Source: Psilocybe cubensis
Lineage: Eukaryota
Assembly (NCBI GenBank): GCA_017499595.2
Contig: CM039003.1
Coordinates: 3,286,001-3,350,000, forward strand
DNA length: 64,000 nt
Direction of reading: 5' to 3'
Below are positions 6,389 through 49,646 of the stretch, in pieces (within the stretch, counting starts at the first letter, position 1; each line of letters begins with the position of its first letter). A program made the translations under genes and the position numbers. The notes below the pieces were generated by a model. It had not been told where the DNA came from. It saw only the letters and a list, made by a program, of their open reading frames with translations, and ran no database searches.

Positions 6389-6607
6389 AGAAAGCTGGCG
6401 AATAATCCCGGGTAAGAGATTATCATCTTCATTTGTTTATTTGCAGTCACCGGCGTCGTCGCATATATAACCACCTATCTCAGTAAATATTCATGTTTCA
6501 AACATTTGGTAGTCATTCGCCAGGACGTATGCGGTGACTGTACCGCTGTGTATAAAATGACAAAGAGATAAGATGACCTTCAAAAGAAAACAATATCTGG
6601 ATAAGTA

Positions 6608-11589: not shown

Positions 11590-11879
11590 ATGAATCTCTT
11601 CAAACTTCCTCAGTTACTGGCGCTTATATCTTACGCAGTCATATTAACGGCGGCTCCTGCGCTCGCCGGTTCCGGCGATCCTGCATCATGCGCCGAGGGT
11701 GAGCGTGAAAACTTTCAGTCGCTGACACCGTTAACTCACTTTTTCCCTCATTGCACCCTCTAGGCTGTATTACAGACGTTGTGGCATGCGAGTCTACATC
11801 TTTAGCATCCCCGTCGGGCATACAAGACTGCTTGAAACAATTTATGGCGTGCAACGCGTTATGTGGTGTCGGTATCTAG
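11590..11879 (+). CDS. Small secreted 6-Cys peptide SSP-a
   Basis: Intron 11699-11763. Spliced product MNLFKLPQLLALISYAVILTAAPALAGSGDPASCAEGCITDVVACESTSLASPSGIQDCLKQFMACNALCGVGI*. Confidence 0.85.
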
Positions 11880-12401
11880 CCACCAGAGGGAGAACAGTGT
11901 GTGTTTCTTCTTGTACTGTGTCCTGGAAGTACTCTTCTAACCGGGATATCTCGTAGCGGCATCCTAGAGGAGAGGAATACAGGAGCAGACTTTAAACATG
12001 ACAATTTTTTACATGGATGTATTGTAGTTTGCGAACACATTGTGATGGGTGCACTCATGACTTTATGTTAACATAAGTCATAGTAGTAATAAAAACATCC
12101 AACCTATTCATAGTCTTCAATGCACACAACTGTGCTGCAGTGATATCCATATTGCCCCACCAAAAAAGAAGAAAATAAAATGACGAAATAAATTACAAAC
12201 GAATTTTAGAAATTCCATTACGATGGATCGCGTTTTAAAAACGTAGTAGTACTTGTCTTAACTAGTAATGATACATCTAACTAACCCTGATCCCAACTCC
12301 ACCTTGACCAAATAATCAAAAAATCCAACCCAACCCAGATAACAAAAGATCCGAAATATATATTGGCCAGAGCACCCCAGGTTCCAAAGGGTTCCATGGT
12401 G

Positions 12402-14872
12402 TCAGCTCGCCGCATCCCTCTTCCTTTCAAGCCACGCCTTCTTCTCCCCGACTTCCTTCCCACCGCTAAGTTCATCCAACATCCCAACTAATCGCTCTAG
12501 CACCCGACCCTGTACGTCCACCGCCGCTGCGAGCTCCTCAATCTGTCTACTTAACTCCGTCTGATTCTGTGCGAGCTTAAGATTCGACAGGTCCCTCCCT
12601 CTAGAGCGCATCGTGCCTTCAGGACCAGAGGCGCTGCCAAGCCCAGAGACACCAGAACCCAGTGCAAAAGCAGGTGTGCGTGGTGGATACGGTGTGTGTC
12701 CCGCATATGATGGGTATGCTGCGTACGAGGGATACTGCCGCGGCTGCTGTTGGCCCAGCCGCCGTGTAGAGAATTCGGGGGAGTAAAGGGAGTGATTGTC
12801 ATGCGCGTACATTTCCCTCCGTCGTGCTTCTGCATCAGCACCCTCCCCGTCTGCATCTCCCTCTGTACCCCCATTCCCGTTTCGCTCAGCGCCACCAAAA
12901 GCGCCGCCAACGCCTCTCCCTACTGTCATCTTCTCCCACACAAGACTGAACTCGCGGCCCAGGACGAATGAAGGGAGTGTGATGAGCAACAGACCGCAAA
13001 CGAGGATAGGGAGGGTGATAAGGCGCCCAAGGAAAGAGCGCGGTGTAATTTCGCCGTAGCCTACAGTGGTTATTGCTGTAGATAACAAGACGTCAGTAAC
13101 TTGCATACTAATGGGATCAAGATGAGGAAAAAAGGAAAGGAAAAGATGAACAAATGAACTTTTAATGAAACGGTGTAGGAAGGTGAGGACGAATAAAAGG
13201 GTGAAGAAGCATCCAAGGGAGGGAGGTACCGGGATCGGATGGGATGTATACCATCTTCGGGAAAAGAAAGAAAATTGGGAACGAGAGCAATCATGCTGGT
13301 GCTGCCGTCACAGACCAGACATAGACAGGTCACATATCAACTTTGTTGCACGAAAATACTGCACAGGGAAATAAATCCTATAAAAGAAAATATGTCCCTG
13401 TGTAACCTGTTGTAAGCCCGCCATGCAGCCCAACATATATAGGCATGAGTATATTTGGTATGCGACAAGCATACAGACGTGTAGGCGAGAGCAGCACAAG
13501 AGGTGTTCCTCATTGTGAAAGAGGGAGCTATAAGAAAGAGGATGAGGTAAATCGATACTCACTGACTAACACAAACCATGCCGCTGCTGGAATCGACTGT
13601 GGGATACATGGACAGATACATGGCTTTAGTCTCAAAGAACCTGACAATAGAAAAGGAGGAAAGTTAGGACGCACCGAAAATTGTGTTGGGTCACCGTCGG
13701 CGTTTATGAATGTTCCAAGAAGTTCGTCCCATGTCCCGCGCTCGGCAAAGTATCTGTGACGCGTGGAGTCGAGGTGGGTGTTGAATAGAAAGGTTAAGGT
13801 TGCGGGATGTGTAGAAGATGAATTCGGCGAGAAGTTAGTACCCAGAAGAAGAGCGAAAAGGAATAATGAATACGACGGGCCAAGCCCCAAATCAAAAATA
13901 AATGAAAAGAGACGTACAATAAAGTGCTGAACACCGTCAAGATCATAAATACAAAGAACCCAATCGCCAGAAGCGCGTGTTGCGACCGCCGTACGGAGAG
14001 ATACATGACCTCCATCGTTCTGCCGCCCAATTAACATTTGACACCAAAAATCGTTGGGGAGGGCACGTACAGTAGGATTGTGTGATTGTATCGGAATGGT
14101 CGGAAGACGCGTAGGAGGCGGAACATGCGTAGTATGGAGAAGCGGAAAAATACGGACTGGGTAATGTTAGATGCTCGACACGCTGGAACTTGGATTTCAA
14201 AGCTTACTGTATCTTGCTGAAGTAGCAATTCCAGATAGTACGGCAGCACCGACAAGAGGTCAATCACCCCAAAGAATGCTTCAATTCGACATCGATATTC
14301 AAATCCTTCGTCAACCCGCAGAAGTCATAGTGCAACTCACAAAACTGCCAATGGAACAGGCTTTGCCACGAATAACTCCATGCCAAACACCTCGCGACAT
14401 ACTCAACCGTAAACAGCGCAACGATGCTCGTTTCGACACCAAACCACACCCTTGTTGAAATTGAATGCACGGCGGGTACCGTCTCTAGCACGGTGATGCT
14501 TGCGGAGAAAATGATCATGAAGATCGTGAACATGTGTACCACAAATGCAGCCCGCGAGGATGTCGGCTGCTCAAGCAGTTCGAAGAGTGCTCGTTTCCAG
14601 AGCGGTCGAATATGGTTGCTTGCAGAGTGGGCGTCGTCGTATGAATGGCTCGTAGGAAGGTGGTCCTGGCTTCCATGGGGTCCGTTGCCGGCATTGTAAT
14701 TATTGTCATTGCTGTTGTGGATATTGTGTGGGTGAGCAGATGCAGAAGCAGACGGCGGGGGTGAAAAGTTCTCCTCCGTAAAAAATCGTACTGCTGAGAG
14801 AGGCGGAGGCCGCCTTATCCTGTTGAGCTCGATGTGTGGGTCCGTCGTCGGCGACGTCGCGGTGGTGGTCAT
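12402..14872 (-). CDS. Voltage-gated potassium channel (Kv-like, 6TM), multi-exon
   Basis: S1-S3 segments (LETVP, LFTVEYVAR, IDLLSVLPYY), S4 LRMFRLLRVFRPFRY, pore SIPAAAWF..TTVGYGEITP, and a C-terminal coiled-coil-like tail. The start codon is approximate. Confidence 0.9.
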
Positions 14873-15809
14873 CGAGCAAAGCAGCGTTGCCGTCAAATCC
14901 ACTTTCTGTCAGCATGCTGAGCATTCTCGGCACGTGGCAACATTTTCTCACGGCCCTTTTTCGCGATTGGTCGACCGACTTAGAGGTTACCCGGAGTATT
15001 CTCTTGTTGAGCAGTTGAGCTCTGCGTGGGTTTCGCTCCACTCTAACCTGTCAAGTGCAAAAATATTGCCAAGGGAAATCAAGGCACTTCTGGAGGCTCA
15101 AGCCTCTAAACGCAATGCAACACGAACCGCCTGGTGATATTCAAAAAGTTCTTCTGAGCTCGTGTCACTTTTCATGGGCATTTTGCTTCTCAAAGATCAC
15201 CCAGGTTGATATGCATTTAAGACATTTTATTTGGAATTGAATCGTAGACCAAGAATAACATCCTTTGCACCCAAGATGATGCCGGTTCCCGGCAGCACTC
15301 TAAGCATTAGTAAGCAATTAAAGGAACAGAAATGGCAAGACCGACTCCGACTGTCACTGTCAGACGGCCAATCACACCGTGTTCGAACTCGAGCTTTATA
15401 CAAGGATCTCCCATTTACAAGAGGAATTTGATATGATGTGAACGCCTTGCTCCCCAACAAGACTCCATCCATCGGGGCTTATATACACATATCTAAATGT
15501 GTTAAACATCTTTTATTACAGAACTTATGTCCTCTTCTTAGGTTCAATTGTCAGCCTCTATTCATTGAAATCTTACTCCCTTACAACAGTTGAAGGTGCA
15601 TGGAAAGCAGATGTGTGAGTATGGTACCTACTCTCAGAAAAGCGCCAATCGCGACTGAATAATTGGATGTATTTTACAGTGCTCCCTAGATCAACGCATG
15701 CAAACATAAAAAGTGCATTTAGAATTTCGGCTACTCAAATCTAACTTAACTGCCCTTCAAGGACATCTGTGTTCCAAACAGATATAGTGATTTCCACCAT
15801 CTATATGCC

Positions 15810-17075
15810 TTACCGCTTTTCGGATCCAGAGTCTGACATGCTCAGATTCCCAGCGAGTTTATGACTGTGGCTTCCTGTCTGTTCCAAAGTCGTGCATATA
15901 CTTCTACAGGATCCAAATTGCAGGCCTGATACATACACCTCCCGTGTTGTCGCTGATAGGGTAGTGCTGCTCGTATTGGTAACAGCGAGCCTCGCAACTA
16001 AAACCGTCGGCGCCATACCCTACAATGCCCATCAATACGTTTGTGAATACATAACCAATAACAGATCCACACACCGATACAACCACCAGAACCGTTTCCA
16101 CATATCCGTTCACTACAATCTTCCCATATCCTGCTGCCGCTGTATTCGGACCGGGGAGGTGTGGCACAATTGACCAGACAAGTAGCACGACCGCGTATGC
16201 CGCGGCCGATTCGACGATCATCGCTAGGATGCGGTGAAATAACCTCTGGGATGGCAACGAGCCATAAGCATCCTTTGAACTCGAGGCAGTGATGATACGG
16301 TATGCGATTAGACACGTCGTGCAGAGGGTAGTCGCGAGCAGCGTGAACGCAAGTGCGTTGGCAATGGGGTCCGTTCCGAGACAGATGAATGCAATGTACA
16401 GAGCTGGGGGGTGAGATTAATTATCAGGACTTGAAGGCAATGACGTGACCATACAGCACTCTGCAATAAATAGCGTTAAAGGTACTGCCAGCCATCTGAT
16501 CGATCGACCACAGACGTGATAGCATCGCCACACCTAAAGGCATATCCCCAGTCAGAATAAACCAGCATCCAAACACCAGCGCAACTTACCAAAAGCCCGT
16601 CAGATATGATAAAGGACGCATACAAAAGCACTGCGCCCATGAGCACTACATACCAGTGCGGAGGCGTCAACTCTGTCTCGAGGATATCATCGCGCGTCTT
16701 CCCACCATTGACGAACACCATGTTGGAGGTGTACCAGTGCAGTGCATATTCCACGAGACAGATGATATACAGTGCTGATACGAAGGAGAGAACAATGCTG
16801 CGATTTGTGTTGGATGGCTTTTTGGATACTTTGCGCGTGTCAGAGTGTTATATTATCAGATTCTGGGATCGGAATTCACTGTATAGATACAACGTTCCAA
16901 AATACACAACGGTATACAACCCTACAACATCGTCTTCAGTGATCATGGTAGAATAATCAAGGCTAAGCCACAAACCCATAAGCAAATCAAATAGCATTCT
17001 AGAGTTTAGATACGCATTTAAAAGCGTGGTTTCGATGTGAGTAATCTGAGAGTCGGTTAGCGAAGACATGTTCAA
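15810..17075 (-). CDS. Multi-pass membrane protein of unknown function (Agaricomycete type), multi-exon
   Basis: Hydrophobic exons with GLYTVVYFGTLYLY, ISDGLL/WRCY, TCLIAYRI, IVESAAAY and GMAPTVLVARLA. Confidence 0.7.
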
Positions 17076-17776
17076 GAAAAAATCTGTTCATCCGGTTTGT
17101 CGCTATTATATACCGCTTAACAGTGAGATACTGCGGTATACACAGTAATTCTATCACACCATATGTGAACGGCAGAATTCTCTTTCCCGCAGTCGACAGA
17201 TGGTTGCATCCTTCTGCATATTCGATTGGTTACCTATGTCTGTAGGTTGCCCGGAGATTCTAAATTCTAGCCGACCAGGATAGGAATGACAGCCACTGTT
17301 CAGGATATATGTTGGCGGGTAATGGGTAACGGTGAAGCCCAGACGATGTTGGAAGAAGGATAGTTCGAAATTACACATTGAGAAACCTCAGATTAACAGT
17401 CGCGACTCGCCTAGGATTCAGAGTGAGACCAACCTCCAGTGCACCAAACCTATATCTCACATGTTTACTCGAGGTAGGAAAACTAATTAAAAAGATGTTC
17501 AATCATTGTTAAAATAATTTACATTCGAATCGATCAACTTCCAGCTTCAGCGTTGCCTGGCGCCGGCCTGATGGTAATCAGATGGGTTGCGTGCGTGGTA
17601 ATAGACGTGGTCGTGGTCATGGTAAATTGTACCTAGTTTCCAGAACCACAATTCACTCAGATAAAGCTGAAAAACGGTCCTCCATGGGTCTATGGAGTGA
17701 TTTCTGTTATGAAAAGCTTAAAGAGAAGAAAAGAGAACTGACACATCAAATCTGACAACGGACCATCGGACCAAGA

Positions 17777-18122
17777 CACGCCGGACAAAAATGCTGACCA
17801 GTTAGCCTGGGTGTTGTCCTGACCAGTGACGTGACTAGTACCGTGACCAATTACATAGTGTCACACATATACTGTCACGCTAATTCATTATTAGTAAGCT
17901 CGACAGTAAATGGCAAATTATTTGATTGTCTTGCGTTTTAATTCAGTGCGGAGTAAGAAGAAATGTTAAACAATCAAGTAATATGTTATTTACTGTTGAG
18001 CCTGCTAATGATGAATTAGCGTGACAACATATGTGTGACACTATGAAATTGGTCACGGTACTAGTCACGTCACTGGTCAGGACAACACCCAGGCTAACTG
18101 GTCAGCATTTTTGTCCGGCGTG
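17777..18122. mobile_element. 346-bp palindromic MITE, CACTA-like
   Basis: TIR CACGCCGGACAAAAATGCTGACCAG..., inverted arms of about 155 bp, and 3-bp TSD AGA (17774-76 and 18123-25). Confidence 0.9.
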
Positions 18123-18492
18123 AGAGTCGGCACAACAAGCGTGAGAAGATAAATCGGCATTATCCGGCAGCCCTTATGTAAGTCGAACGAGTCAAGGCAA
18201 CTCTCGTCGTTATAATCAATCAAGAACCATAAGTATTTTTATGAAATTTTAATTCACAGAGCTGTTATAAAACGAGAGGAAATAATCGTGAGTTAAAGAG
18301 GGCTACATATGTACCACTCAACGCATTTAAGTAGTAGTACAAGTCACATTCGGTACAGACATTTTTTTTAATACTTTTTCTCAGAAAGTTGGACTATACA
18401 GATAATATAAGTTAGCAGTTAGAACCATCTAAATAGGATGGAAAGGCCATCATACTGTTTTCAATTGCCTTTCCCTATTGGTCCAAGCCACT

Positions 18493-18752
18493 TTAAATAC
18501 AGGCAGCGGTACACTCTTCGAAGGCGGTGGTGCATGCCGTAATAGCTGCGACGCGGTTTGAGTCAGTAGGCGCAGCAGCTGTACAGGTGGTGAGTGTGCT
18601 AGTGCATGCTGTAAATTTCAAAAGATTAACATATTCCCTCTTGTTAAAATCAAGCTCGGACCTGCGGTGCAAGTGGTCAAGTCGGCTACGGAAAATGGTA
18701 TCATGCAGATGCATAATGCCAAGGTGAGGATGGAAGTTGCGACGTTCTTCAT
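18493..18752 (-). CDS. Small secreted 6-Cys peptide SSP-b
   Basis: Intron 18609-18661. Product MKNVATSILTLALCICMIPFSVADLTTCTAACTSTLTTCTAAAPTDSNRVAAITACTTAFEECTAACI*. Confidence 0.85.
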
Positions 18753-19720
18753 TGTGATATGCTTGGTTGGATGTTTAAATATTTGCTACGAGCTTTGAAC
18801 TGATGAGGACTTCTCTGGAGTTCTCGTCTTTTATGCAGTTTCAAAAATTATATTTTCATTCCTGTATAATTTATTTCTCCTACACCATCCCTCGTGCTCC
18901 GTTCCTAGAATATTTGGATACTGCGGTGCTCCCAGTGTCGCATTGATTCGTTACCAAAATACTCATAGAGTCGCCGTTAGTACTCCACAAAGCGTCATTG
19001 TTCTTGTATTCCTCCTGAGGGGACTATCTTGACTCGCACGTACTTATGGCGATCTTCTTCCTTGTCCCACAGCCGATGTTACCACGTCTCGCTTCGTTCC
19101 CAAGTCAGTAGAAAAGCGCTGTTATGAAATTGGCGCCGAAATATAGTTGGTATGGTGCAACCTCAGGAAGGGGAAACTCAATGATGAGATGCAACACGGA
19201 TACCCTATAATCTCAAATGATATAACCACAAATTTATACACAGTAGTAATATGCTACACATATAGGGAATAGGCACTCTCATGTACAGTTCACGTTGCCG
19301 CCGGCTGACATTTTCCAAGAAGAAGTTTAACCTGATAGCTAAAATACTCTCAACCATTTATAGCTATCTCCACCATGTTTGGAATGTTTTAAGAACACTT
19401 CAGTTCCGATACCACTTTGCAAATCATGTTTCCCACCATTCTGGATCAACCCTAAGTTCTTGTTGACGTCATGACCGCCTTCGCGGGAACAAGTGAGGTT
19501 TCCTATTGGTGGACTTCTACTGGAATACACTGAAAGAGTCAATCCGTTGGAGTAGCGAACGGAATCTTGTTAATAAACACCGACATTGATATTTTATCCT
19601 AGAAAGCTCCAATGGCATAACTTACTCATCGATATGAATTTAAACTTTCTCAATCCCCAATTAACAATAAGTCTGCAACAAACTTCAATGTTTCGTATAA
19701 TGATCTCAGGGATTCATACT

Positions 19721-19798
19721 GGATGATTTGAGATAGTTGGATGAACGGATGATTTGAGATAGTTGGATGAACGGATGATTTGAGATAGTTGGCTGAGC
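19721..19798. repeat. Tandem repeat, 26 bp x3
   Basis: GGATGATTTGAGATAGTTGGATGAAC at 19721, 19747 and 19773 (the last copy is degenerate). Confidence 0.9.
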
Positions 19799-19950
19799 TT
19801 CATGTTATTCAACGATGTAATAGAAATCCAGCATATATTCCGTTGAATTATATTCAATTTGACACTATAAGTCTATCTAGGATGTGCAGCTACAAACCAT
19901 TCCTATTAGAAAACCGCTATTTGTAGTCTTTAAGCCTGCGCATACTTTTG

Positions 19951-20256
19951 CTATTCCTGCAACTCTAAGGTTCCGGAAGGGCATGGTTGGATGCATTTTG
20001 AAAAAATGCTTAAACACATCTCCACTTCGGAGAAGAGAACGATCTAGTGCACGTTTCCAATTTTCGGATGCATCCTAAGCAATATGGCATAAAACACCGT
20101 CAATGCTGCGACTATACCCCTACACGAGTGAGCCTTTCTACACTCACTCTTTGTGCAGAAGGAGTTGTTGCCACTGTCTTGGGGGGAGCTTACAGGAGCC
20201 GTATTTGCAAGGGTGCATGAAATAAGTAACAGCATAGCAACCTTCAAGAAATTCAT
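19951..20256 (-). pseudogene. SSP-c, frameshifted member of the 6-Cys peptide family
   Basis: MNFLKVAMLLLISCTLANTAPVSSPQDSGNNSFCTK|RCIRKLETCTRSFS.. then stops early. The remaining EVEMCLSIFSKCIQPC lies in another frame, with the shift near 20030. Confidence 0.72.
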
Positions 20257-20936
20257 GATTTCAAGCCTAGTTGAAGAAAAATATGAGACGTTGGGCAATA
20301 TATTTCTGGGATCATCCCTCTTTTTCTATACAGGGCTGAAACCTGACGCGTTGACGGTTCTCTCGACGTGCCACGCAGGAACGAAAGAGCACCTGATAGG
20401 AATGTTACTCAAATGCTAACTACCAGCTGTGAGACAACAGCGGGTGCTTGGTGTTAAAGCTACTAAGCTAGTGCTAGCATGAGAATGAAAAAAGTCGTCC
20501 ATTTTCTACTCGAACTGGTGCCTCCGTGATACATGACATGCTCCAGGCTTTCAAGTGGCAACAAAAAATTTGAATCCGGAGGGGACATGCTTTTAGGGGA
20601 GCTTCCCGGGTCCCGTCACACTCATACGCTTAGTTGTGATCCATACGTTGTTGGCCCACCGTCACTGCCAGCATCGCTTTGCATATACTGTCGCCCAAGG
20701 TGGGAGTCGACTCGTTTATATCATAATCTCTTTGCTGGACTGTATATTCACTTGGGTCATACTCAATATTGCAGTGCATTTGCAAGATACAATACGTCCC
20801 ATAATTGCTAAAAATATATTGTTTAAAGTCTACCCCTATAATCGTTTCTTCAGGCTGCAGCTGCAAATAATCTTATTAGAAACCCTGAATGTGATAATCC
20901 TAAGAATTACATACACTGTGGCTGTCCATGTGGACC

Positions 20937-21230
20937 TCAGAGGCCAGAAATGCATAACAGACTACATGTTCCAAATTCTGTCAAGCATCCTTGAATGTCC
21001 GCCGAGGATAGCATAGACTCAGAGCACTCCTGAAGCACTGTGATGCATCCTACCAGATACAACAGAAAACTTTTCAATCTTTTGATCATATATTGGTATG
21101 ATTGAGCCTTTCTGTACTTACCCTGTGCGCATGATACAGGGTCATCACCGTCTCTAGGTGAAAGCGATGGAGCTGCCATTATGAGGGTGCATGATAAAAG
21201 CAGCAGAATAGGGAATTTCAAAGGATTCAT
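20937..21230 (-). CDS. Small secreted 6-Cys peptide SSP-d
   Basis: Intron 21050-21121. Product MNPLKFPILLLLSCTLIMAAPSLSPRDGDDPVSCAQGCITVLQECSESMLSSADIQGCLTEFGTCSLLCISGL*. Confidence 0.85.
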   Translation of the reverse strand: MNPLKFPILLLLSCTLIMAAPSLSPRDGDDPVSCAQGKYRKAQSYQYMIKRLKSFLLYLVGCITVLQECSESMLSSADIQGCLTEFGTCSLLCISGL

Positions 21231-22046
21231 GATGTTCAGTCTATTGCCTACTCTCGATGAGAAATATGAGGTGTTGAGCGATACACCCTTGAGATTTTTC
21301 CTCGTCTTATATGCAGTCCTGAAACCTGATGTATAACGATTTATCCTAAATCCCTTTATCCCCTTTTGCCCAATCCTTCCAGAGCTATTAAGCCTCATCA
21401 GGAGAAGATTGATAAACGTACATTTTCAGACGTCCGAGCCATCTATAGGAGCTTAGGAAGGTCAACAGAGCAGTAGATGACCACTACTGCTCTATTATTG
21501 CAGTCATTAACAGTAGATATAGGCTGACGCTCCACGTATCCACACTTGAGGTTAGATTTTACACTGCTATTATTGTTAAAATGTTTGATATCGACGTTAA
21601 CGAGGAAATCACTAGACCTTTGTTGAGCAGAAGATCATATCTTTAGAAGGCCATTAGGAAGAGGACGCGGATTCCGGTCAACCTGTCCCCGGATAGCGAC
21701 CGCATTTGGAAATTATTTGATCTTCTATGACGTTTTGGAAGCTGAATGGATCATGGGCTCTTGGAACGTGCATACATGACGCAGTTCACGGTTTGTGTAG
21801 TGGATGTTTGGCTATTGAACTTACACTGTAAGACAGTCTTAAAGCTCGTAAGAAGTTGACAAAATGAAGATTATATTCCACTTTGATATATGGGTTGATA
21901 GCTAATTTCACACTCCGATATATATTAAATTGTTGATATGTATATTCAATAAAGTAGAAACAAAACAGAGAGTTTCACATTGTAGGTAGAAAAAGTTGTA
22001 ATAACGTTCTTATGCAGTAACACCCATTCGATCACTGCCATTCAGC

Positions 22047-22943
22047 CTAACACTTATAAAGCACTTTGTCGGGATGCTTCGTCCTCACATGGGACCCAAC
22101 TGCCTGCGGAGTCAGCGATTCCCTACATAGAGGACATATTCGCGAATACGTCGCCACATGCATGGCCGCGGTATGTCTTGCCAAGTTTTCCGCCATGAGG
22201 AACTTCGTATCATCTTCGCAGTTGTCCCACTCGCACTTTCCACCGTTGCCGCTCACATGGTACCTCCCAAGGTGCGACTGAAGAGCCTCGTGGGTATTTC
22301 TAAACTCGCTTTTGCAACCCGGCCATCCACACTCTATCGTTTTCTCCTTGTTTGGAACTTTAAACGTTTCATATCGAAGAATCTTCGTGTCATCTGAAGC
22401 TGTGACTGATGAGGATCCCATGGAACTACGGGGTCTGGTATATGGAGCATAAGCTTTTTGTGTCTTTTCCCGCAGTTTGGAGATGGAAGGTATCCGAGAA
22501 ATTCCTGGGGACCTGGGCGATGAAGGGGGAGAACGGATCGGCATGGTCGTTGACGAATGTCTGGCGGGCGAACGTGGTGATCTCGGCGAACCGTGCCCAA
22601 GCTCTGCGTATCTCGAACTGTGCCCTGGAATCTCTGCAAACATTCGTCCAGGTATAGGACCAGCCGGAACATTCCTGGTGCTATTTGACGATGGAGGGCG
22701 TTCAGGAAGATCCACGTTTGACATTAACCTAGATCCTGATGCAGTTGAGCTTGTTTGAGGTGTGTCCCAAATAGTTGCTGATAGTTTAGAACGTGAGGAG
22801 GAGCCTTTCCTAGGTGTTGTAGGTGGAGACATAGAATCTGGGTTGACATTGTAAGTCAAGACGTTTCCATTATGAGTTTCTGGGTTCGTTGTTGAAGAGA
22901 GAGCAGGGGAAATATGGGAAGGATAGAAGTCAGTTGGAGCCAT
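22047..22943 (-). CDS. Ser/Pro-rich protein with three C2H2-type zinc fingers (paralogue of 10161-11102)
   Basis: Intronless 298-aa ORF sharing RMFAEIPG, RIPSISKLRE, IECGW.GCKS, GGKC.WDNC.DDTKF and CPLC..SLTPQAV with its paralogue. Confidence 0.85.
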   Translation of the reverse strand: MAPTDFYPSHISPALSSTTNPETHNGNVLTYNVNPDSMSPPTTPRKGSSSRSKLSATIWDTPQTSSTASGSRLMSNVDLPERPPSSNSTRNVPAGPIPGRMFAEIPGHSSRYAELGHGSPRSPRSPARHSSTTMPIRSPPSSPRSPGISRIPSISKLREKTQKAYAPYTRPRSSMGSSSVTASDDTKILRYETFKVPNKEKTIECGWPGCKSEFRNTHEALQSHLGRYHVSGNGGKCEWDNCEDDTKFLMAENLARHTAAMHVATYSRICPLCRESLTPQAVGSHVRTKHPDKVLYKC

Positions 22944-24197
22944 GTTGAAGAGGATATAGGTAGTGTTCTGTGAGATATTGAAGCTTTCTTAGGAGACTTT
23001 CCGACGTTGGGGATGAATTAGTGCTATGAATTATTGCCATATTCATCAGAACTTATATACTTTAGTGAGCGCCGGCCACACTGCGCGTCAATCTTCGTGG
23101 CATCAATTAATGTACATCGAAGAGACACACAAGCGGCTCTGGCCCAATGCATTAATTCTGAAGGCCAGAAACTGAGTGGCTATTATGACGGGCGTCCTGC
23201 TGGCCTAACTTTCTGCTTACAATCTAATCTATTGGGTCATGGCCTGTTCGAACTGGCCTGACTTGTAAAAATTCCATAACCGAATTAGGATTCTGAGACG
23301 GTGAAGCACCTACAAATCCCCTGTGGACTTGTTTGATTTCATAAACAACTAACATCTGGCCCCAATTTGACGCCGAGAAGTTACATCAACATATCCATCG
23401 GCAATCTGTCAAGTACAAAATCCAATATTATCCTCATGTATGACACAAACGTTCAACAACATTCATTTGACGGTAGGACACATTATACAATATGTTCACC
23501 CCTCCTCCGGTCTATCAGATCAGAAAAACGACGCCCTTGCTCCTGAGAAGAATGTGATGCGACTAGATTCAACTCTCCGCAAACAGACCGATGTGTTACA
23601 GTCCTCTATGAGCTACTCACAAAAACATGCAAAGCTTGGTTGCCAGCAAATGCACTCACCCTAAAAAACATAATTGGCTTAATTAAATCACCAAATTTGA
23701 GAGTACTGAGTGTGTCTTTGTAGCTCAAATATGTAGAATAAACTCGAAAAAGCTGATAAACACTCTGTACTGTATAAAAGTAGCTAAAAAACCGATCCAA
23801 TTCAATCATGAAGCTCAAGACAATCCAAACAAAAACGCGACATCGCTTCATTGTCCACAACCCTCGTTTTCGGTTTATAATCACACTCACGTGGCTAGTT
23901 TTTGGTGTTAGAACCATTGAAGAAGGAAGTGTAGGTGCTTTGACCTTTGAAAGACCTACGACGAATATGTTCGATGACCGCTGACCAAATGGTACGACCC
24001 ACTGAATTGATTTGCACTCTTCCATCTCAAAGAAAATATGAATGAAGATTTTTCTGTTTTCAACTTTCGCAGAATTTGTTCGTGCACTCTTTTGTTCGTT
24101 TGGTCAGAGCGTTGTGAGTGAGGAGAAGTATAAATGAATCCCTGCAACGACAGAGTATCAACAACGAGTCCTCCTTTACACATCATAGTGGCATATC

Positions 24198-24944
24198 ATG
24201 AGTTCTGGAAACAATGGGTAGGTGTCTTAATATCTCGTTCTTCAATATATCAATTAACCATACCATTCAAGGGGTCTACCACCCACCGACATCCCAGATA
24301 GCTACACCCATCGCATCACCGTAGAGCAGCTACAAGGAGCATCAAACGAGGGCGGCGGTGCCCCGCCGCGCGACCCACAACTTTGTGTGCTCTCCAAAAC
24401 ATGCCCTTACAAAATGTACACCAACGCGCTTTATACATTCGCCGCGACCACTGCCGAGTTTCTGAGCCGCCGTGAGCACGCGATCCTCCAGCACCTGATC
24501 GAGCACCACGCGATATCCACAATTAAAGGCCGGCCTCCAATGATACAGTGCACGGCATGCGCAATATTCACCCCGAAGGGCGCGGGCGGGATGATCCTCG
24601 TGGAGAACATCGCGCGGCATATCAATCTCGTGCATCAACCCTCGCCGTACACGATCGGGTACTGCATTCTGCTGGAGAAGAAGTGTAAGTGCAAAATGTA
24701 CGGCTCGAAGCTGTATGTCGCGCCTGTGACGGCGCAGGAGTTCTATGTCAAGCGGGGAGAGTATATCGCAACACATTTGCAGACGATGCATGGTATACCA
24801 AGGGAGGGTGAGCCACAGACATTTCATTGCAAAATGTGTCTTAGGGACGGCAAGAATTTTGTGGTTAGGGAGGATACATTTGCGGATCATGTTAATGAGT
24901 ACCATCAGCCGCCGGTGTTCGATATATTAAAACCTCTTAAATGA
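24198..24944 (+). CDS. Protein with two tandem double-zinc-finger (C2H2-like) units
   Basis: ATG 24198 and a short intron (about 24218-24271) join in frame to CVLSKTC..HLIEHH..CTAC..HINLVH and CILLEKKC..HLQTMH..CKMC..HVNEYH. Confidence 0.72.
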
Positions 24945-26164
24945 ATTTATGGATAGTGTAGATCTTTGAAGGCAGGCAGGCACTCGATAGCCGCGTAGTT
25001 CTATGTTATCTGTCTGAAATGAACTATTTGCCGTGGTTGAAATTCAAAAGAAAGATTTGATGAAATTCAATAGTTTCGATAAATCAGCACGAAAGAACGA
25101 CTATTTAAAGTGTGCATCTGGTTGTACCTACATCTCTCCTTTGAATGCTAGCAGGAAGTAACAGGCATAAACAAGGCGCAAAGGTGTGAAGACAAGACGA
25201 GGGTTTGTCCTGAAGGTGTTCAACAAACAAGCGCATGGGCCATGCGCACGGACCCGGTCCAGACTCTTCCTTTTTGGGAAATGAACTTGTACGCTTCGCA
25301 CTTGGGTCACGGTAATTGGTCTTGCTACAGAACCGCACCCTTTGTACAAAATCACAGAAAGCCTACAGATGTCGAAAGATGCTTCTCGTTAATCGCCTGC
25401 TCCTCAAGACAACTCACTCAGGTAATGTTATGATAGGGCGCCGTCACAAGTGACCTATCCGATGAACTGTTTGCTTCGCGACGTGTCACTGAATTACTCC
25501 CTTCCCTTTCAACTGCTGACCCTGGCATGGAAACATAGAGTAATTTTAGATAATTATCTGCTACTCTATTTTACACGCACCGTCACGAACCTGATCCTAT
25601 CCAACGGATCGCGACTCGCGAGATCAAACAGGATCAACCTAAAGGTTAGTCATACCATCCCAATCACACCCCTCTCACTCCCTTTCTGGCATGCACACGC
25701 ATCTCAAAGAACCCAAACCGCTTGACAGACATATTATTCGCAGACATAATATGCGCGAACAGATTCTCATCATACACCATCTGCGGACATTTCTCGTTGA
25801 TCGGGCAGAATCCAAGGTGGAGAGTGGGAAACGGTCAGTGAACTGCTAAATCAAAGTCACACCTCTGCATCCACATCAAGGTGTGTGCATCCCTCGTACA
25901 ACTGCCCCAAAAGCCGCTAATGTTCATTTCAGTTTCATCTTATTCACACTATAGTCACAAACTAAAAATATCTCATTTTCGGTCGATTTAGAATTGAAAA
26001 TTTAAAGTCTGCATTTGCACTCTTTCAACACCCCAACCACAACCACAACCTGATAAAAGCAGCTGTAAATCTCAAGTATCAGGAATACTACGTAAATGTA
26101 AGTCATAGCAGGAGTCAGCTTACACTATCTCGAGCGGCTGGCTTGCCGTCCGTGGGTCACCGTG

Positions 26165-26440
26165 TCAAACAGCACAACCTTGTAAGCAGGTCGTGCTTGC
26201 AGTAATACAAGCCAAGAGTGGAACGAGTGGGGAGGAGCTGCCGAGTGCGGAAGTTTCGCAGGTTATGAGGTCAGCGCTGCACGCTGCAAATTTTATTGAG
26301 GGACGGTTAAAATTGTGGTTTGTTAATGCAGAAACGGAAGGATAATAATTACCTGCTGCGCAGCTGGCGCAGTCTGCAGCAACGTATGGGACCATGAAGG
26401 ATGAGATGAGAGCTAATGCGATGGATGTGAAGGTCTTCAT
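26165..26440 (-). CDS. Small secreted Cys-rich peptide SSP-e (7 Cys in mature part)
   Basis: Intron 26284-26352. Product MKTFTSIALALISSFMVPYVAADCASCAAACSADLITCETSALGSSSPLVPLLACITASTTCLQGCAV*. TATAAAAAG lies about 80 bp upstream. Confidence 0.87.
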   Translation of the reverse strand: MKTFTSIALALISSFMVPYVAADCASCAAGNYYPSVSALTNHNFNRPSIKFAACSADLITCETSALGSSSPLVPLLACITASTTCLQGCAV

Positions 26441-28087
26441 TGTGTGCTTTGGATTAATTGCTTGCCGATTGGGTTCTGTGCTGGAAACAATGGGGTATCT
26501 GGAATGTTTGTAGGCTTTTTATATGGGTTTTGGGGGACTGGGACGAATATGGGTTTGTGTATGTTTGGGTTCTACGGGTTTTTGGTTTCGGCATTCTGTT
26601 GTATTGAACATTCGTTATAATTCCAGATACAGTCGTAATAATATTGAAAAACCTGGTCGCCGTCCACCGCCGCCTGAGTCCAGCTCACGTCAATTGCAGT
26701 TTGATATACCGAATGGCAGCATGTTTCGTTCAAAGTCAGCCAGCTGATCATCATACACAGAGTGGCGACAGATATTCAGTGTACCATGACCTACTACGCC
26801 GATGTCCTTAGAGTACGATAACCAAATTATATGACATAATTGAATGGATTGGCGTGAGCGCCCACGCTGTCCTACCGCTGTCGATTATCAAAGAGATCGC
26901 AATCATTCTCTCTCCAGAATCCGGAGTATGCGAAGTGCCTATTACGCTCACAGTTTTGTATATCACATTGTCTATCTCCTACCATTTTTCTATCTCCGTA
27001 CCCATGAAAAGGTCAAAAAATCACAATATCAAGAACAACGTAGCTGAAATAAACGCCTGCCCATGCAGGTTATGTCCGTCGAATGGGATTGGGCGTTGAT
27101 CATTCTCAAGTTATCTGGGATATATCTGTGCACCATTCCGGAGTATATCTACCCCGTTTAGTGGGAATATACTAACCACTTTTTGCAGACCGAATGTACG
27201 TATCTGTGAATCTCTACCTCAGGAACTGAGCGGCAAGATGAATATGTGTGCTTTATGACGTCAAGAACATCGTCATTCGACACTCATAGAAGGCTCGTAA
27301 TTGTATCGACTTGAAATTTTGGTTAGATGTTTTTGTGGCTCGATGTTTCATTGGTTATCGAGCGGCGAGATCCCTGATTCAATGACAATAAGTGAATGAG
27401 CAATAGGAATCACTTGGAAACTTTATCACTACCTAATGGGTCTTCATTGGCATGTAGATATGTCTCGATATGTCGATTTTCTAGTCCGATTCACGTATCT
27501 CATAAATTTGCCTGAACAGCATTACAGTAGAATGCAGAAAAGGAAATGAAATGAGAAGACAGAATGCCGGATCGGTAGCGCAGCCTTTTCCCGTTTATTA
27601 ACCCTGGTCCCAAATATATCACACTTGACGGCGATCATCGATCATCTCCTGGTGGGGGATCCTACTTGTATCCTGCAGTTTCTTCAGTAGCTAATTGTAT
27701 GTCCGAATAGGTCATATTGAGCTTATCTTCTGGTTAATTTCAAGCAAGTCGGGGGTTTTTTGCTATCGATAGTAAGCGCATCACGCGCTTTTTTGCATTC
27801 ACATTCTCTCGTAATAATGCTCAATTACTAACAGGAGGAGGCATTCGTTTAACATGTAGAGCACATTGTTATTTATACTCATTCACCCTAATTGAATGAA
27901 AAAAATCAAATATTCATGATCAATTTTAAAATTATGGTTTATTAACAATTTAAAGTCTGCATATGGAACTGCTGCAAAGCCACCATATAGAAGCGGCTGT
28001 CAATGTCAATCGTCAACAAAACCCTCTAAATAATTGTATGAAACACTTACACTACCGTGACCGTTTGATTCATCCGTAGCTGCTGCT

Positions 28088-28361
28088 TTAAACGGCGCAG
28101 CCTGACATGCAGGTCGTGCTGTCGTCGATGCAGCTTGCCAGAGCAGTGACGGGATCGGAGCTTGCAAGCGCACCCGTCTGGCATAACAAGAGCGTAGTGC
28201 TACAACCTGTATTTCATTCGAAGAGGATAAAAATGACGGCTTTAGTTATGAAGACGAGTATGATAACCACCTGCGACACATGTAGAACAGCTTGCTGCGA
28301 CATATTGCACCATAAAGACGCTTGAGACGAAGGCGAAAATGATGGAGGTGAATGCCTTCAT
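28088..28361 (-). CDS. Small secreted Cys-rich peptide SSP-f (7 Cys in mature part)
   Basis: Intron 28207-28270. Product MKAFTSIIFAFVSSVFMVQYVAASCSTCVAGCSTTLLLCQTGALASSDPVTALASCIDDSTTCMSGCAV*. Confidence 0.87.
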
Positions 28362-30036
28362 GGCGTGGTTTGTTTGAATTGTTTGTTGCGACTTGGTTTG
28401 AGTGCTGGAACAATGTGTATTTCTGATATACTTGTGGGCTTTTATAGGTATTTCAAAAGCCTAAGACCTGATAAAAATGTGTGAATTTTCGTTCAAGCGC
28501 TGTGTCTGTTTCGGAAGGTCAATAGTATTGCCATAATTCATTCACTTCCATCATTTGAATTTTCTCAATCAGAAACCACAGTATGAGTTAATATTACGAT
28601 GCTATTCACTGGTAACTGACTCCAACCAGCTTCACGTAAATTGGAGTTTGACATAAGGAATGGTAGCGTAATGAATAAATTGCATGTGACCGTTCATCGC
28701 ATCGGTCATCCTCTCATCGAGGTCTGTGCCTCTCGACAGAGCTTTGCGCACACCAAGAGATACAGCACCATCTCTGAATTTCAAATTTCTCATCGGGCCT
28801 TTTCAGCTGCATGCTATGTCCGTCAAATTGATTTTTATAGTGTCCCTCAATGACCAAGAATTGAAAAGATATATCCAAGGTATCTCTGCTAGATGCTGAG
28901 ATACCTAGCAATTGTGATTGAATATGTTAACAAAGGGTCGATGGCGCTAAGACACCGAGATAACTATGAGTATGACGTCAAAAGCGGCCTCATTTACCTT
29001 CACTGAGTACCCATTGAACCAGAACGTTACTGGCGAAGGCTCACGCAACGTTAACGAAACCTGTAACTTGTCCTAATGGGTATGTTGTGTTCTGTCTATC
29101 GTGAGTAAAGACATATGCTACAAAGGGTTACGCAAGGTTCATCAAATGGCGAATGGCAGATTCTGATCGCCGTTCAAACCTGCTATGGTATAGTGTATTG
29201 CAGTACAACTGATATTGTCAAGGTAGAGCTAAGACACCAGGAACACAACTGCGCTTTAGGACACATGTACAGTACAGTCCGGCTGGTCAGTATATCAATA
29301 ATCACTTCGAATCAATAGTCCATGGTATGAGCATGCGATCTAGCAGGATCTAGCGTATCTCAAGGTCACTGAGCTGGTTTCGGTTCGTGGTAGTGTGGTC
29401 AGTTTGTCGTTCTTGTAATAATTTTGTATAAAAACAATCGTATTAACATACGCTTTCTAATATGTCGGAAATATGTATGAAAGTTCACAACTAACCGTTT
29501 TCTCATGATTCACACCAATAGTTGATAAGAAAAAAATTGCTTTGCAACGCGTACATACAGTCAGGTGGGTAGAAGATCCAAAGAAAACAAGAAAAATGAA
29601 TGGGTAGCTACGGATTGACATGAAGGTGACTCGAAGTAAGGGTCTGGACCCCCGTTGGGCGCAGCAGGCACGGACCATGGTTCGTGCATTTATTTGGCTA
29701 TCTACATTAAACTAAACATCTGATCTCTCCGGATGATCCCGATGATAAGGCATTGTTGGACATTGCTCATACGCAGCGCTCACTGAAGGACATTGTGGAT
29801 TCTGCGAATTCCCCTCTAACTCACAATAAGGCCAATGGAAACATATTTATCATCCAAAATAAATTTCACATTTCATATATTTCATATTCACTAAACTTTA
29901 AAGTCTGCCTGTGGTCTCTTCAAGTTTCACCACCTCCAAAAAAGCAGCTGCATATTTAGTTATTAAGAGCGTCTGCCCCGACAGATATATCAGACTTACA
30001 CTATTGTGAGCATTTAACGTCGCCAAACATATTTCC

Positions 30037-31608
30037 TCAAGGGAGAGTGCAACCCCTTGTGCAGTCCGTGTAGGCAGAGGCACAGGTCGCAATAGCGGTA
30101 ACTGGATCACTGCTTGCGAGTGCACCCACATTGCACGTTGTGAGCGTTGTAACGCATCCTGCCATTTAGAAGACAGAGAGTTAGAGTCTATATCCTGGAG
30201 TGTATGTACGAAGCAATAATCCTTACCTGTACATCAGCAAAAGTGACCAGACCCCCAAATGCCTTGGGAGCCTTATAAGGCATGCCAATGTTTTACGTGA
30301 CACAGTAATGTCACGCAAAACATTTGGGCAACATTTGGGAACACTCAAATCATTTGGTGGTCATTTGGAGGCCCCACAAACATTTTTGAAGCACAAAACA
30401 AGCACCAAATAATTTCTAGTAACTACAATTTACAAAAAAAATTCGTACACTGTGCAACCTTGAAGGAATCATTTAACAAAATTAAAAGAGGTCACAAAAC
30501 ATTTGGTTTTACACTTCGGTTATGAGAAATGTTTACAGGACTTTCAAATGCTGATGAAATAATTCATCCACACCAAAATTTACTGGATATACAGCCACAT
30601 TAGTTCTAATTAGAATTCTGTACAGTTGGTCACCCGGTCTGTACAATTTCTCGACTGTCAACGAAGTCACAATGCGATCAGCGTGAATCGGAGTGAATCG
30701 GAGATCAAATATTTGTTTGTTTGTGCATAATAATCTCTTTCAACCCCCGTTTCTTTCTTTCCACATACTCTCATGTTCACTACTCCGGCGACGCTTGGTG
30801 GGACTTGGGCTTGGACTTTTCAACTCTAAGTCTTCGTATATCATAGCTGAATCTAACTCACAGGTAATTCTGCCACTTCCTTTCTGATTAGATCATCCTC
30901 AACTGACCATGTATCTGCCTTTCCGTAGACCGTTCTCCTTCTGCCTTAGATCTACTGGATATCCGGCTTGGTATATAATCATTCACTAGTTCCCAAACTT
31001 TTAGGTGAGTATATGCGCACTTCTGCACACACACCTTGCTTACATCATGCAACCAAAGTAGCTCCTATAATTCATGGGTACCATCTATTGATGACATCAT
31101 CTCAGCATCATTTTGTTATTTAACCACTTTCTCGCTTCTCTGTACCTTTTGGAGTCATGTTGTAGTATAAGTTTTCTTAATGCAACAAGTTCTTTTTACT
31201 TGCTATGATAATCTGAGGGATCCACTAAATAAGGAACCATGTGAACAGTGTAAAACATTTAAACACTGGAAAATGTTTGCCAAATGTTTTTGGGACTCCC
31301 AAATGTTGCCTAAATGTTACGGACACTCTCAAATTTTAACCAAATGATTTGGCTATATTTAGTACTACCTAAATCATTTCCTTGGAATAAATAATTCGAA
31401 GCCTTTCAGTCTTCGGAGTCTCTCGTTACGAACCGCACAATGCCTTTCGGGCATTGGGGCCTTTGGACGCCTCCAAATGCCTTGTCAAGGCATTTGGGGA
31501 TCCGAGCACTTTTGCTGATGTAATGCAGGTAGCGTACGATGCGGCAACGTATGGTACCATGACGGAGCATGATACGAGTGCGAGAGCTATAGAGCTGAAG
31601 GCCTTCAT
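30037..31608 (-). pseudogene. SSP-g, disrupted by a transposon insertion at the end of exon 1
   Basis: Removing 30232-31520 plus one TA restores MKAFSSIALALVSCSVMVPYVAASYATCITGCVTTLTTCNVGALASSDPVTAIATCASAYTDCTRGCTLP*. Confidence 0.87.
30232..31520. mobile_element. 1289-bp non-autonomous DNA transposon with TA TSD (Tc1/mariner-like)
   Basis: TIR CATCAGCAAAAGTG..CCCCAAATGCCTTG at both ends, TA flanking both sides (30230-31 and 31521-22), subterminal CAAAT/ATTTG repeats, and no long ORF. Confidence 0.9.
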
Positions 31609-33158
31609 TGGATTCTTTGGTAGAGTTGTTTGAGTCTGACTTGAGGTGAGAAACAATCTCTCTTTTATACACATTTTTAAGCGCAATATTTATTATTGGC
31701 TGGTGCATTTTTGTTCAAAAGTGTGTTTTGGGTTTCAGCCTCCTGCCGTATTACTTCTATTGTCTTATCTTTACGGCCACTTACCTGATTACTCTCCTTG
31801 TCTCAGTCGTTCAAGAATTTTACTTAGATATTTTCTACTGCTTGACAGAAAGTCACGTACAAGAAAGGTTTGACTTACTAAATAACAAAATGATACTCAA
31901 TTCCATCAGTAACCCTTTCCTCTAAACCTCAACCAGGTGACTATCTTCTACGTATCGATAGACGCCACCATTCCGTGAGAAGCGCCCGCTTTGCCTTGTA
32001 CGTGCAACTCCACTTTGACAAATCTCAACAATGCCACAATCATATTTCCACACAACCATATGAAGTGTAGACCTATTAGTTTTCAGCTTATCGTGTTTAT
32101 CAATATGCATGTCGGACAGTCTAACATTTAGCATGAATTCTAACCCATAAAATAACGACCACATACCAATATAACACCTCTGAATCGAGTTTCCGCGTCA
32201 GTCACAGGTCATTGTCTTCCTCATAGAATAACTCGCGATATCTCAACACGATCACTGGCATATCCCCAGATCGAGATTGCATTGATCAATCTAGGGAAAT
32301 TGCTACTCAATGTTGAAATTACGAGATACACAGTCAATTGAAAACATGTCACTTCCCGCAGGCCAACGGATTCGATCGAAATGTGTGAAGGCAAGGTACC
32401 GAGACGACTATGACGTCAAATCCATCGTCATTCATAGATCCACCATCACTCACGGTTTCAAGGAAGGATTGATGGGCCTCGGTTGCCGAGTTCTCTTACG
32501 ATATGTTGAATGAATTGGATGAATTTGATCTGGAAGGCTCGCGGAATGAAAACTCTAACATTTCTTAATGGGGCAACTTTCTTGTCCATCGTTTTGATTG
32601 ACATATCTCGGAAGTTTTATTTGTACAATCGCCGTAAAGCGTGGCGTACATAGTGTTGTAGAACGTCAAAGTGGAGCTGAACGGTACTGTATAGCTTGCT
32701 TTGATTGGCTGGGTGAAGGTTAAAGATTTTTGGCCAGAAGATGTACAATTCATTAGGGGATCAGATGGTACTACTTGAGAGTCACCAAACATCCGCTAAA
32801 ACAGTCTTCTTAGATGAGTAACGGCGTGCTGTATTGGGGTTAAATCACGGTCAGATGAACAGCGTTGATTATTGCATTGTTTTTTCTTTCGAACTTGAAT
32901 TTACGTGAACTTGTGCTCAATGTGGGTGAAGGCATTGAATCCCATCTCATAAAGTTATACCTGAATGACAAATTGAAGTACAAGGCAGCCGTAACGGAAC
33001 TAAAACAACATCAATTCAACACGAATCTGAAATGGTGTTTACAAGTACAGAGTGGGACAGCACGCTCACCCAAATCGCATAAAAGACGAGCCATATTCCA
33101 GAATCCTCATCGTTTCAACTCACAAACAAGTCGTAAACGGTTCCAACAATCTCACACA

Positions 33159-33438
33159 ATGAAGACCTTCACCTCCATCTCACTTGCCCTCGTCTCATGC
33201 TCTCTCCTCGTGCCGTTTGCCGCAGCGGACTTGACCACATGTGTCTCAGGTGACGATTATTATCTTTACTCTCCAACTACGAGCGAACGACTGACCTGAC
33301 GTTAAATCCTGGGCCATAGCATGTGTTACTACTCTCGTCACATGCAACACGCTCGCGCTCGCAAGTTCGAATCCAACAGTTGCTATTGCGACATGCGCCT
33401 CTGGCTACTCGACCTGCACATCGGCGTGTGTTGTGTAA
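33159..33438 (+). CDS. Small secreted 6-Cys peptide SSP-h
   Basis: Intron 33250-33319. Product MKTFTSISLALVSCSLLVPFAAADLTTCVSACVTTLVTCNTLALASSNPTVAIATCASGYSTCTSACVV*. Confidence 0.87.
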
Positions 33439-35192: not shown

Positions 35193-35322
35193 CGACGCCA
35201 GCAGGATTTGAACCTGCGCCCTCAAAGAGGAACAGATATCAGAACTGAAATGACGATCTCGGGAAGAGACAACGTGCATTTGAAATTCTAATCTGTCGCC
35301 GTAACCACTTGGCTATAGCGCC
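35193..35322 (-). tRNA. tRNA-Ser(AGA) with intron of about 50 nt
   Basis: GGCGCTATAGCCAAGTGGTTACGGCG-ACAGA-TT-AGA-A[intron]A-TCTGT, a long variable arm CCTCTTTGAGG, T-arm GCAGGTTCAAATCCTGC, discriminator G, and a downstream T-run. Confidence 0.92.
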
Positions 35323-37192: not shown

Positions 37193-37198
37193 GGACGC

Positions 37199-49545: not shown

Positions 49546-49646
49546 GGTCAGAGGTGAGGTGTCTCACACCTTCCAACCCACCCAACTGATGGTAAGTCAT
49601 AGGCGCCGGCTGTTCGGCCAAGCCGCTTGGTCATGTCGCCAGCCAA

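Follow-up and report, generated by a model that had tools for sequence, protein, structure and literature searches.

Eight paralogous two-exon genes, here called a to h, lie within 22 kb (positions 11590–33438) of a 64,000-nucleotide stretch of Psilocybe cubensis contig CM039003.1 (positions 3,286,001 to 3,350,000 of the forward strand), which as a whole is referred to as the window. On balance, these genes probably constitute a lineage-restricted family of small secreted cysteine-rich peptides with a hairpin fold that would serve diversifying extracellular binding or defence; we infer the secretion, the disulfide pairing and the function. Six of the eight copies are intact, and the coordinates are those of an initial annotation of the window. 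That annotation had described a common phase-1 intron and an invariant cysteine spacing, and gene models built from the coordinates confirm both. Specifically, exon 1 always comprises 3n+1 nucleotides (nt), which gives a phase-1 intron that splits the codon directly before Cys2 in all eight copies, and the introns are 53–73 nt long with GT..AG ends. Genes a, c and d form subfamily 1, and genes b, e, f, g and h form subfamily 2. The individual models are as follows, with peptide lengths in amino acids (aa) and the loop counted in residues between Cys3 and Cys4.

Gene a, plus strand: exon 1 11590–11698, intron 11699–11763 (65 nt), exon 2 11764–11879; intact, subfamily 1, 74 aa, loop 13.
Gene b, minus strand: exon 1 18662–18752, intron 18609–18661 (53 nt), exon 2 18493–18608; intact, subfamily 2, 68 aa, loop 16.
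Gene c, minus strand: 19984–20256, with exon 1 20148–20256 and intron 20075–20147 (73 nt); pseudogene, subfamily 1, tblastn expect value (E) 5e-6 to d.
Gene d, minus strand: exon 1 21122–21230, intron 21050–21121 (72 nt), exon 2 20937–21049; intact and expressed, subfamily 1, 73 aa, loop 12.
Gene e, minus strand: exon 1 26353–26440, intron 26284–26352 (69 nt), exon 2 26165–26283; intact, subfamily 2, 68 aa, loop 16.
Gene f, minus strand: exon 1 28271–28361, intron 28207–28270 (64 nt), exon 2 28088–28206; intact, subfamily 2, 69 aa, loop 16.
Gene g, minus strand: 5' part 31519–31608, 3' part 30037–30227 (68-nt intron and exon 2); split, subfamily 2, loop 16.
Gene h, plus strand: exon 1 33159–33249, intron 33250–33319 (70 nt), exon 2 33320–33438; intact, subfamily 2, 69 aa, loop 16.

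The cysteine framework C-x3-C-x6-C-loop-C-x6-C-x3-C is invariant across the seven readable copies, and its loop measures 12 residues in d, 13 in a and 16 in b, e, f, g and h. A six-frame search of the window with the regular expression C-x6-C-x8-22-C-x6-C-x3-C returns seven matches, every one at a named locus. With the loop restricted to 12–16 residues the window holds 7 matches, against a mean of 0.005 and a maximum of 1 in 200 mononucleotide shuffles. In line with this, tblastn of the seven conceptual peptides against the window reaches E < 1e-5 at the eight loci only. The next-best tblastn match, at 35010–35202 (E 0.022), was considered as a ninth copy and rejected, as the Cys motif is absent there. 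The six-cysteine motif of the initial annotation needs one correction: in e and f a further, seventh Cys stands two residues ahead of Cys1 (C-x2-C-x3-C). The resulting odd number could leave a free thiol or provide an intermolecular bond, possibly between the two neighbours.

Gene d is transcribed, spliced exactly at its predicted intron and polyadenylated in run X1. The RNA label of this run is only a guess; its behaviour is RNA-like, with many intron-skipping joints that have CT..AC ends. In particular, a 352-nt X1 contig joins 20731–20860 to 20915–21048 and then continues into exon 1 across the predicted intron, whose 72 nt it lacks. The same contig removes a 54-nt intron from the 3' untranslated region (UTR) at 20861–20914 (CT..AC on the plus strand), and a loose end of 25 T at 20731 represents a poly(A) tail on the minus strand. 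The 3'UTR intron begins about 22 nt past the stop codon. Together, these joints add the following features to the model.

Gene d transcript, minus strand: 3'UTR intron 20861–20914, poly(A) site at about 20731, gene span 20731–21230; from the RNA-like contig.

The word depth of the d contig in X1 is 9097, compared with 45.5 and 5.8–22 for neighbouring transcripts, although contig depth is a poor measure of expression. There is no cover of d in run X5, which comes from the same study as X1. A multi-intron gene on the minus strand at 13563–14859, which has no Pfam match, is spliced identically in X1 and X5 (five CT..AC joints) and serves as an internal control, indicating that X5 does hold RNA of the organism. 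Genes b, c, e, f, g and h have no cover in X1 or X5 (a lies outside the compared stretch), which does not imply that they are silent.

Coding constraint is evident in every comparison computed. The proportion of nonsynonymous differences (pN) is below that of synonymous differences (pS) in all 20 of 20 region comparisons, which cover 10 of the 21 possible pairs. Synonymous divergence (dS) is saturated, at 0.64 to more than 3 or undefined, and the ratio of nonsynonymous to synonymous divergence (dN/dS) in the mature region is 0.25–0.52 where it can be computed. Saturated dS together with pN < pS indicates that the copies are old and constrained. Divergence is uneven along the genes. Nucleotide similarity among e, f, g and h is kept only in exon 1 and the 5' flank, and dN of the signal region is below that of the mature region in 6 of 7 computed subfamily-2 pairs. 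At the level of sequence, the pattern is thus one of a conserved predicted signal and a divergent predicted core. Taken together, the d transcript, the coding constraint and the uneven divergence establish that the genes are real.

Two of the eight copies are broken, each in its own way. The reading frame of c opens with the ATG at 20256 and stops at 20010–20012 after 57 aa, and its closing C-x6-C-x3-C lies in another frame at 19984–20016; the out-of-frame motif and the premature stop indicate a frameshift between Cys3 and Cys4. Had it been encoded, the core of c would be basic and rich in Lys and Arg, whereas every intact copy has an acidic core. Gene g is broken up by the following element, which is inserted right behind Cys1 and ahead of the intron donor.

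30228–31518 (1291 bp, no strand assigned): non-autonomous DNA transposon inside g, with approximately 43-bp terminal inverted repeats and a target duplication of TA (or TGTA); multi-copy.

Two other DNA runs, X2 and X3, bear the same organism label and are about 99% identical to the window. In both (2/2 other DNA runs compared), contigs join 30227 directly to 31519, which means that the insertion is absent there and that g is uninterrupted. The frameshifted c, the transposon-split g and the saturated synonymous sites with pN < pS all support the birth-and-death pattern proposed in the initial annotation. Regarding the element itself, its depth in DNA runs is 15–25 times that of its surroundings, and RNA-like contigs contain relatives of it, one of which has a GT..AG intron of 57 nt (31002–31058). 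A second insertion polymorphism lies at 17774–18122, where X2 and X3 skip 349 bp and have 8 other letters in between; this stretch, which also shows raised depth, is probably another repeated element.

Signal cleavage was placed by eye, following the rule of small residues at −3/−1 after the hydrophobic core. The predicted cores of subfamily 2 (b, e, f, g and h) measure 45–47 aa, whereas those of subfamily 1 (a and d) measure 48–53 aa and have a short acidic or polar spacer ahead of Cys1. Their grand average of hydropathy (GRAVY) is +0.3 to +1.0, and Thr, Ser, Ala and Gly together make up 50–57% of the subfamily-2 cores. Apart from the cysteines, the best-kept positions, which vary little or not at all, are Leu at C2+4, Ile/Leu at C4−3 and Phe/Tyr at C4+4 (5/7), and the best-conserved stretch is the tip of the predicted hairpin, which reads A-L-A-S-S-[DN]-P in subfamily 2.

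The initial annotation had proposed a helical hairpin, and AlphaFold2 models support a helix-loop-helix fold for both subfamilies. The exon-2 parts served as input, with an alignment of the seven paralogues only, and the resulting models therefore lack Cys1. For h (subfamily 2), the model comprises helices at residues 2–14 and 18–36, with a predicted local distance difference test (pLDDT) score of 85.3; for a (subfamily 1), helices are modelled at residues 2–12 and 16–34 with a pLDDT of 73.3. Neither model contains a strand. The i+4 and i+11 spacings would bring the three cysteines of each helix onto one face, and a helical-wheel tally places the Leu, Ile and Phe/Tyr positions within about 60 degrees of this Cys face. 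The mirror symmetry of the spacing suggests the pairing C3-C4, C2-C5 and C1-C6, which would give three nested disulfides. Foldseek finds no match for the model in the PDB. An all-against-all structural search returns generic helical hairpins only (Z ≤ 5.5), with 16 of 48,161 chains at Z ≥ 5. Disulfide-linked hairpins among these matches include the Jug r 2 leader (9q1l_F, Z 5.1), p8MTCP1 (1ei0, Z 5.0) and a vicilin-buried peptide (6o3q, Z 4.7). Of these, p8MTCP1 aligns to the model with a root-mean-square deviation of 2.0 over 36 residues; its Z score ties with those of many unrelated helical hairpins and thus reflects a common arrangement only.

Searches for relatives brought no described family to light. 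At E ≤ 10, the seven exon-2 peptides match no Pfam family, and a search that added two unspliced open reading frames (ORFs) to them gave a single sub-threshold match, to Mtp (E 0.13). The exon-2 profile has a sole match, P0001 (E 9.9e-4), among 1.84 billion protein representatives; its Cys pattern is different and it is not a member. A word-indexed protein search with the unspliced e ORF and a 41-aa piece of h found nothing, and the ESM Atlas gave no usable match. Against PDB sequences the profile has six matches (E 0.43–4.6), none of them cysteine-rich, short peptides being hard to link by sequence. Two scans of metagenome contigs yielded 36 and 138 pattern matches, of which 0 were confirmed. 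The literature contained no description that we could find of the framework or of a fungal helical-hairpin cysteine peptide; motif strings led mainly to papers on plant LBD zinc fingers and to a few unrelated ones on defensins, connexins and peptide libraries. Since none of these collections is a fungal genome set and they hold few mini-genes split by introns, the blanks mark the family as uncatalogued and say little about whether it is rare. The family is accordingly uncatalogued as far as sequence comparison can tell, and the initial annotation, which had not recognised it, is borne out.

The closest described kind, as far as the available text of the sources extends, is that of the plant alpha-hairpinins, which include four-Cys members (EcAMP1, VhTI, BWI-2c and Tk-AMP-X2) and six-Cys members (nigellin-1.1). 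Alpha-hairpinins are small secreted peptides encoded by defence-type gene families, in which a loop connects two antiparallel helices and the disulfides are nested (PMC7191063, PMC11591084). Each helix bears one CXXXC motif, the bonds are C1-C4 and C2-C3, and the peptides are released from precursors of modular or vicilin type (PMC7191063). Their six-Cys class has the framework C-x3-C-x3-C-x4-20-C-x3-C-x3-C, as in nigellin-1.1 (PMC11591084; PDB 2NB2), and because it exists, with a different spacing, a three-disulfide hairpin is not unprecedented. The fungal peptides resemble these plant peptides, as described there, in small size, in the outer pairs C1-x3-C2 and C5-x3-C6, in the predicted helix-loop-helix and in forming a gene family. 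Unlike them, all fungal copies have an inner spacing of x6 on both sides rather than x3; their genes are single-module and two-exon with their own predicted signal sequence, compared with the multi-module or vicilin-type precursors of plants; and the peptides are acidic. The PDB profile search detected no sequence similarity between the two. In our reading, the fungal peptides may work like an extended alpha-hairpinin scaffold while standing outside that family.

Other disulfide-pinned helical hairpins are the cysteine-stabilised alpha/alpha toxins (scorpion kappa-KTx) and the CHCH or twin-CX9C hairpins such as p8MTCP1. Both types rely on two disulfides at other spacings, and CHCH proteins are not known to be secreted. 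Like hydrophobins and other fungal small secreted cysteine-rich proteins, which are often stage-specific and very highly expressed, the peptides are small, cysteine-rich and multi-copy. In hydrophobins the core is a beta-barrel, and two CC doublets occur among the eight Cys. The peptides of this cluster differ from them (PF01185, PF06766): they have six or seven Cys, none in a CC doublet, their models are all-helical, and Pfam yields nothing at E ≤ 10. The earlier statement that they are not hydrophobins therefore holds. Three further candidates were rejected. The CFEM domain (PF05730) is a fungal extracellular domain with eight Cys; the framework here has six, and no Pfam match is found at the same threshold. 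The cysteine-stabilised alpha-beta defensins of fungi pack one helix on a beta-sheet, whereas both models are all-helical. Mating-pheromone precursors end in a C-terminal CaaX box, and the copies have no consistent box of this kind and do have a signal peptide (predicted by eye). In evolutionary pattern only, the cluster recalls cone-snail toxins and defensin-like families, with a conserved signal, a divergent mature peptide on a fixed Cys framework and tandem gain and loss; there is no homology to these families.

We propose the following model. Each gene would encode a pre-peptide of 66–74 aa that begins with a signal sequence (basic start, hydrophobic core, small residues at −3/−1), followed in subfamily 1 by the short acidic or polar spacer and then by a core of 45–53 aa. 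Once cleaved, the core would fold in the endoplasmic reticulum into an antiparallel two-helix hairpin, with Cys1, Cys2 and Cys3 on one face of helix 1 and Cys4, Cys5 and Cys6 opposite them on helix 2, such that the nested disulfides form the rungs of a ladder. The Leu (C2+4), Ile/Leu (C4−3) and Phe/Tyr (C4+4) side chains would fill the remaining small core. Over time, scaffold and hairpin tip would be retained while the exposed surface diverges and copies are gained and lost. The rigid mini-scaffold may bind extracellular targets, such as competitors, grazers or partner organisms, and its variable surface would determine which.

Several observations weigh against this model or parts of it. The transcript evidence covers one of the six intact genes and comes from one run. 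The predicted cores are acidic (pI, the isoelectric point, about 4.1) and contain 0–1 basic residues, unlike most antimicrobial peptides; a surface of this kind, acidic and all but uncharged, speaks against membrane lysis of the cationic type, and the peptides would not be classical cationic antimicrobials. Antifungal plant alpha-hairpinins are described, in the available text, as needing positive charge (PMC7191063). With regard to the fold, the modelled sequences lack Cys1 and the first approximately 8 mature residues, and the alignment behind them is shallow. Of the 14 helix segments, only 3 have a hydrophobic moment (at 100 degrees) above that of shuffles (p < 0.05), and the composition is rich in beta-branched residues, Thr, Val and Ile being poor helix formers. 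Positive selection is not indicated by dN/dS of 0.25–0.52 with saturated dS, a point of difference from the cone-snail toxin and defensin-like families. No orthologue was found in any other organism in the collections searched, which are not fungal genome sets. Finally, a hidden Markov model (HMM) of subfamily 2 ranks a first of 20,002 sequences, at 15.9 bits compared with 14.9 for the best of 20,000 shuffles, while d falls outside the top 8. The two subfamilies, which the initial annotation treated as paralogous, are therefore linked by framework, intron position and location; their sequence similarity is not significant by HMM. A common origin rests on the framework, the position and phase of the intron, the gene architecture and the co-location rather than on similarity, and is weaker than first stated.

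The same observations allow the competing explanations to be weighed. The peptides might be surface or wall components, made in bulk at one developmental stage to coat hyphae or interfaces and possibly bearing O-mannose on Thr and Ser, a role like that of hydrophobins and of the repellents of smut fungi. Mature peptides that are uncharged to acidic, with the GRAVY values and the Thr, Ser, Ala and Gly content given above for subfamily 2, would suit this role, and a very high depth of d in X1 with no cover in X5 of the same study is typical of stage-specific structural proteins, although, as noted, contig depth measures expression poorly. A clear amphipathic face is nevertheless missing, with 3 of 14 segments significant and sector means that differ modestly, and bulk coating needs no strong divergence among copies. 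We consider this explanation unlikely, yet it is the most serious competitor. Extracellular binding or defence is favoured because it best accommodates a scaffold that stays fixed under a diverging surface, copies that come and go, and expression that depends on condition.

It is less likely that the peptides are real and secreted yet fold or pair differently, for instance as a beta-hairpin laddered by disulfides or with a mixed fold. Mirror-symmetric Cys spacing suits any antiparallel hairpin, and the abundance of beta-branched residues, the weak helical amphipathicity and the shallow AlphaFold2 alignment (7 paralogues) leave room for such a structure. Both models are helical without a strand, however (pLDDT 85 and 73), and by geometry i+4 and i+11 would fall on one helical face whereas i+7 would alternate between strand faces. 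The core-like Leu, Ile and Tyr/Phe also sit at i+4 or i−3 from Cys.

The conserved tip raises the question of whether it acts as a canonical reactive loop, in which case the peptides would be protease inhibitors directed at proteases that prefer a small or aliphatic P1. The tip lies between the helices and is the best-conserved non-Cys stretch, and three plant alpha-hairpinins, VhTI, BWI-2c and C2, are trypsin inhibitors (PMC7191063, in the text available). The fungal loop, by contrast, has no Arg or Lys, and no sequence similarity to any inhibitor appears in Pfam or in the PDB sequence profile. In VhTI it is helix 1 that enters the recognition site, a mode not obviously transferable to the fungal peptides (PMC7191063, likewise in the text available). 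Inhibition of proteases is thus quite improbable as the main role. Lanthipeptide cores are likewise rich in Ser, Thr and Cys, and fungal Kex2-type precursors of peptides that are made on ribosomes and modified after translation (RiPPs) have repeated cores between dibasic sites, with genes for tailoring enzymes alongside. A RiPP origin with the Ser/Thr/Cys-rich core as modification substrate is nonetheless hardly credible, as that resemblance is superficial, the leader is a classical signal peptide (by eye), each gene holds a single core without Kex2-type dibasic sites or repeats, the 37 ORFs scanned across the window include no tailoring-enzyme domain and no peptide-modifying enzyme, and disulfides account better for an even Cys framework with mirror symmetry. 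Among these explanations, secreted hairpins for extracellular binding or defence are the one we prefer.

Two neighbouring genes bear on the history of subfamily 1.

10080–11102, plus strand: C2H2 zinc-finger gene; next upstream neighbour of a, in the same orientation.
22047–22988, minus strand: C2H2 zinc-finger gene; next upstream neighbour of d, in the same orientation.

The two are 54% identical (184/340, E 3e-109). The presence of a paralogous zinc-finger gene beside each of a and d points to an ancestral duplication that carried both genes, and suggests co-duplication and possibly co-regulation of the zinc-finger and subfamily-1 genes. The gene at 22047–22988 has low-depth contigs in X1, the run that holds d, and none in X5. 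Elsewhere in the window, 2283–5494 and 6299–9540 form a tandem duplication of about 3.2 kb with 82% identity, whose ORFs have a weak sugar-transporter match. Beyond 35 kb the flank is rich in transposons (35948–39500, 47329–56555 and 58285–59310) and contains a reverse transcriptase like that of long interspersed nuclear elements (LINEs), a Ty3/gypsy-type polyprotein of full length, encoded in long open frames, and part of a Plavaka-type transposase. The Plavaka match and the short introns fit a mushroom-forming basidiomycete, on what we take to be the taxonomic range of Plavaka.

A bolder claim, which we advance tentatively and at rather less than even confidence, is that these genes represent the first fungal family of three-disulfide alpha-helical hairpins, with a new framework independent of plant alpha-hairpinins. 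The family would have been missed by gene callers and databases since its members are tiny and intron-split, and in one state of the fungus the transcript of one or more members would rank with the most abundant. Its peptides, with an uncharged surface of Thr, Ser and Ala, would then make up an unrecognised class of mushroom defence or surface molecules. No part of fungal genomes is less understood than the small secreted cysteine-rich proteins, and annotations routinely omit tiny two-exon genes such as these. The cluster is a tractable entry point to the role of such peptides in mushrooms, be it defence, surface chemistry, protease control or signalling, with eight copies in 22 kb, one of them very strongly expressed and one polymorphic for a transposon insertion. 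If the fold and the pairing are true, the family would contribute, from fungi, a compact 45-aa three-disulfide helical scaffold to a fold class whose known members come chiefly from plant seeds and animal venoms, and would be a clean case of a convergent disulfide-laddered helical hairpin. For a defence peptide rich in disulfides, an uncharged surface with many hydroxyl groups is unusual, and it may reflect a mode of action that is not lytic.

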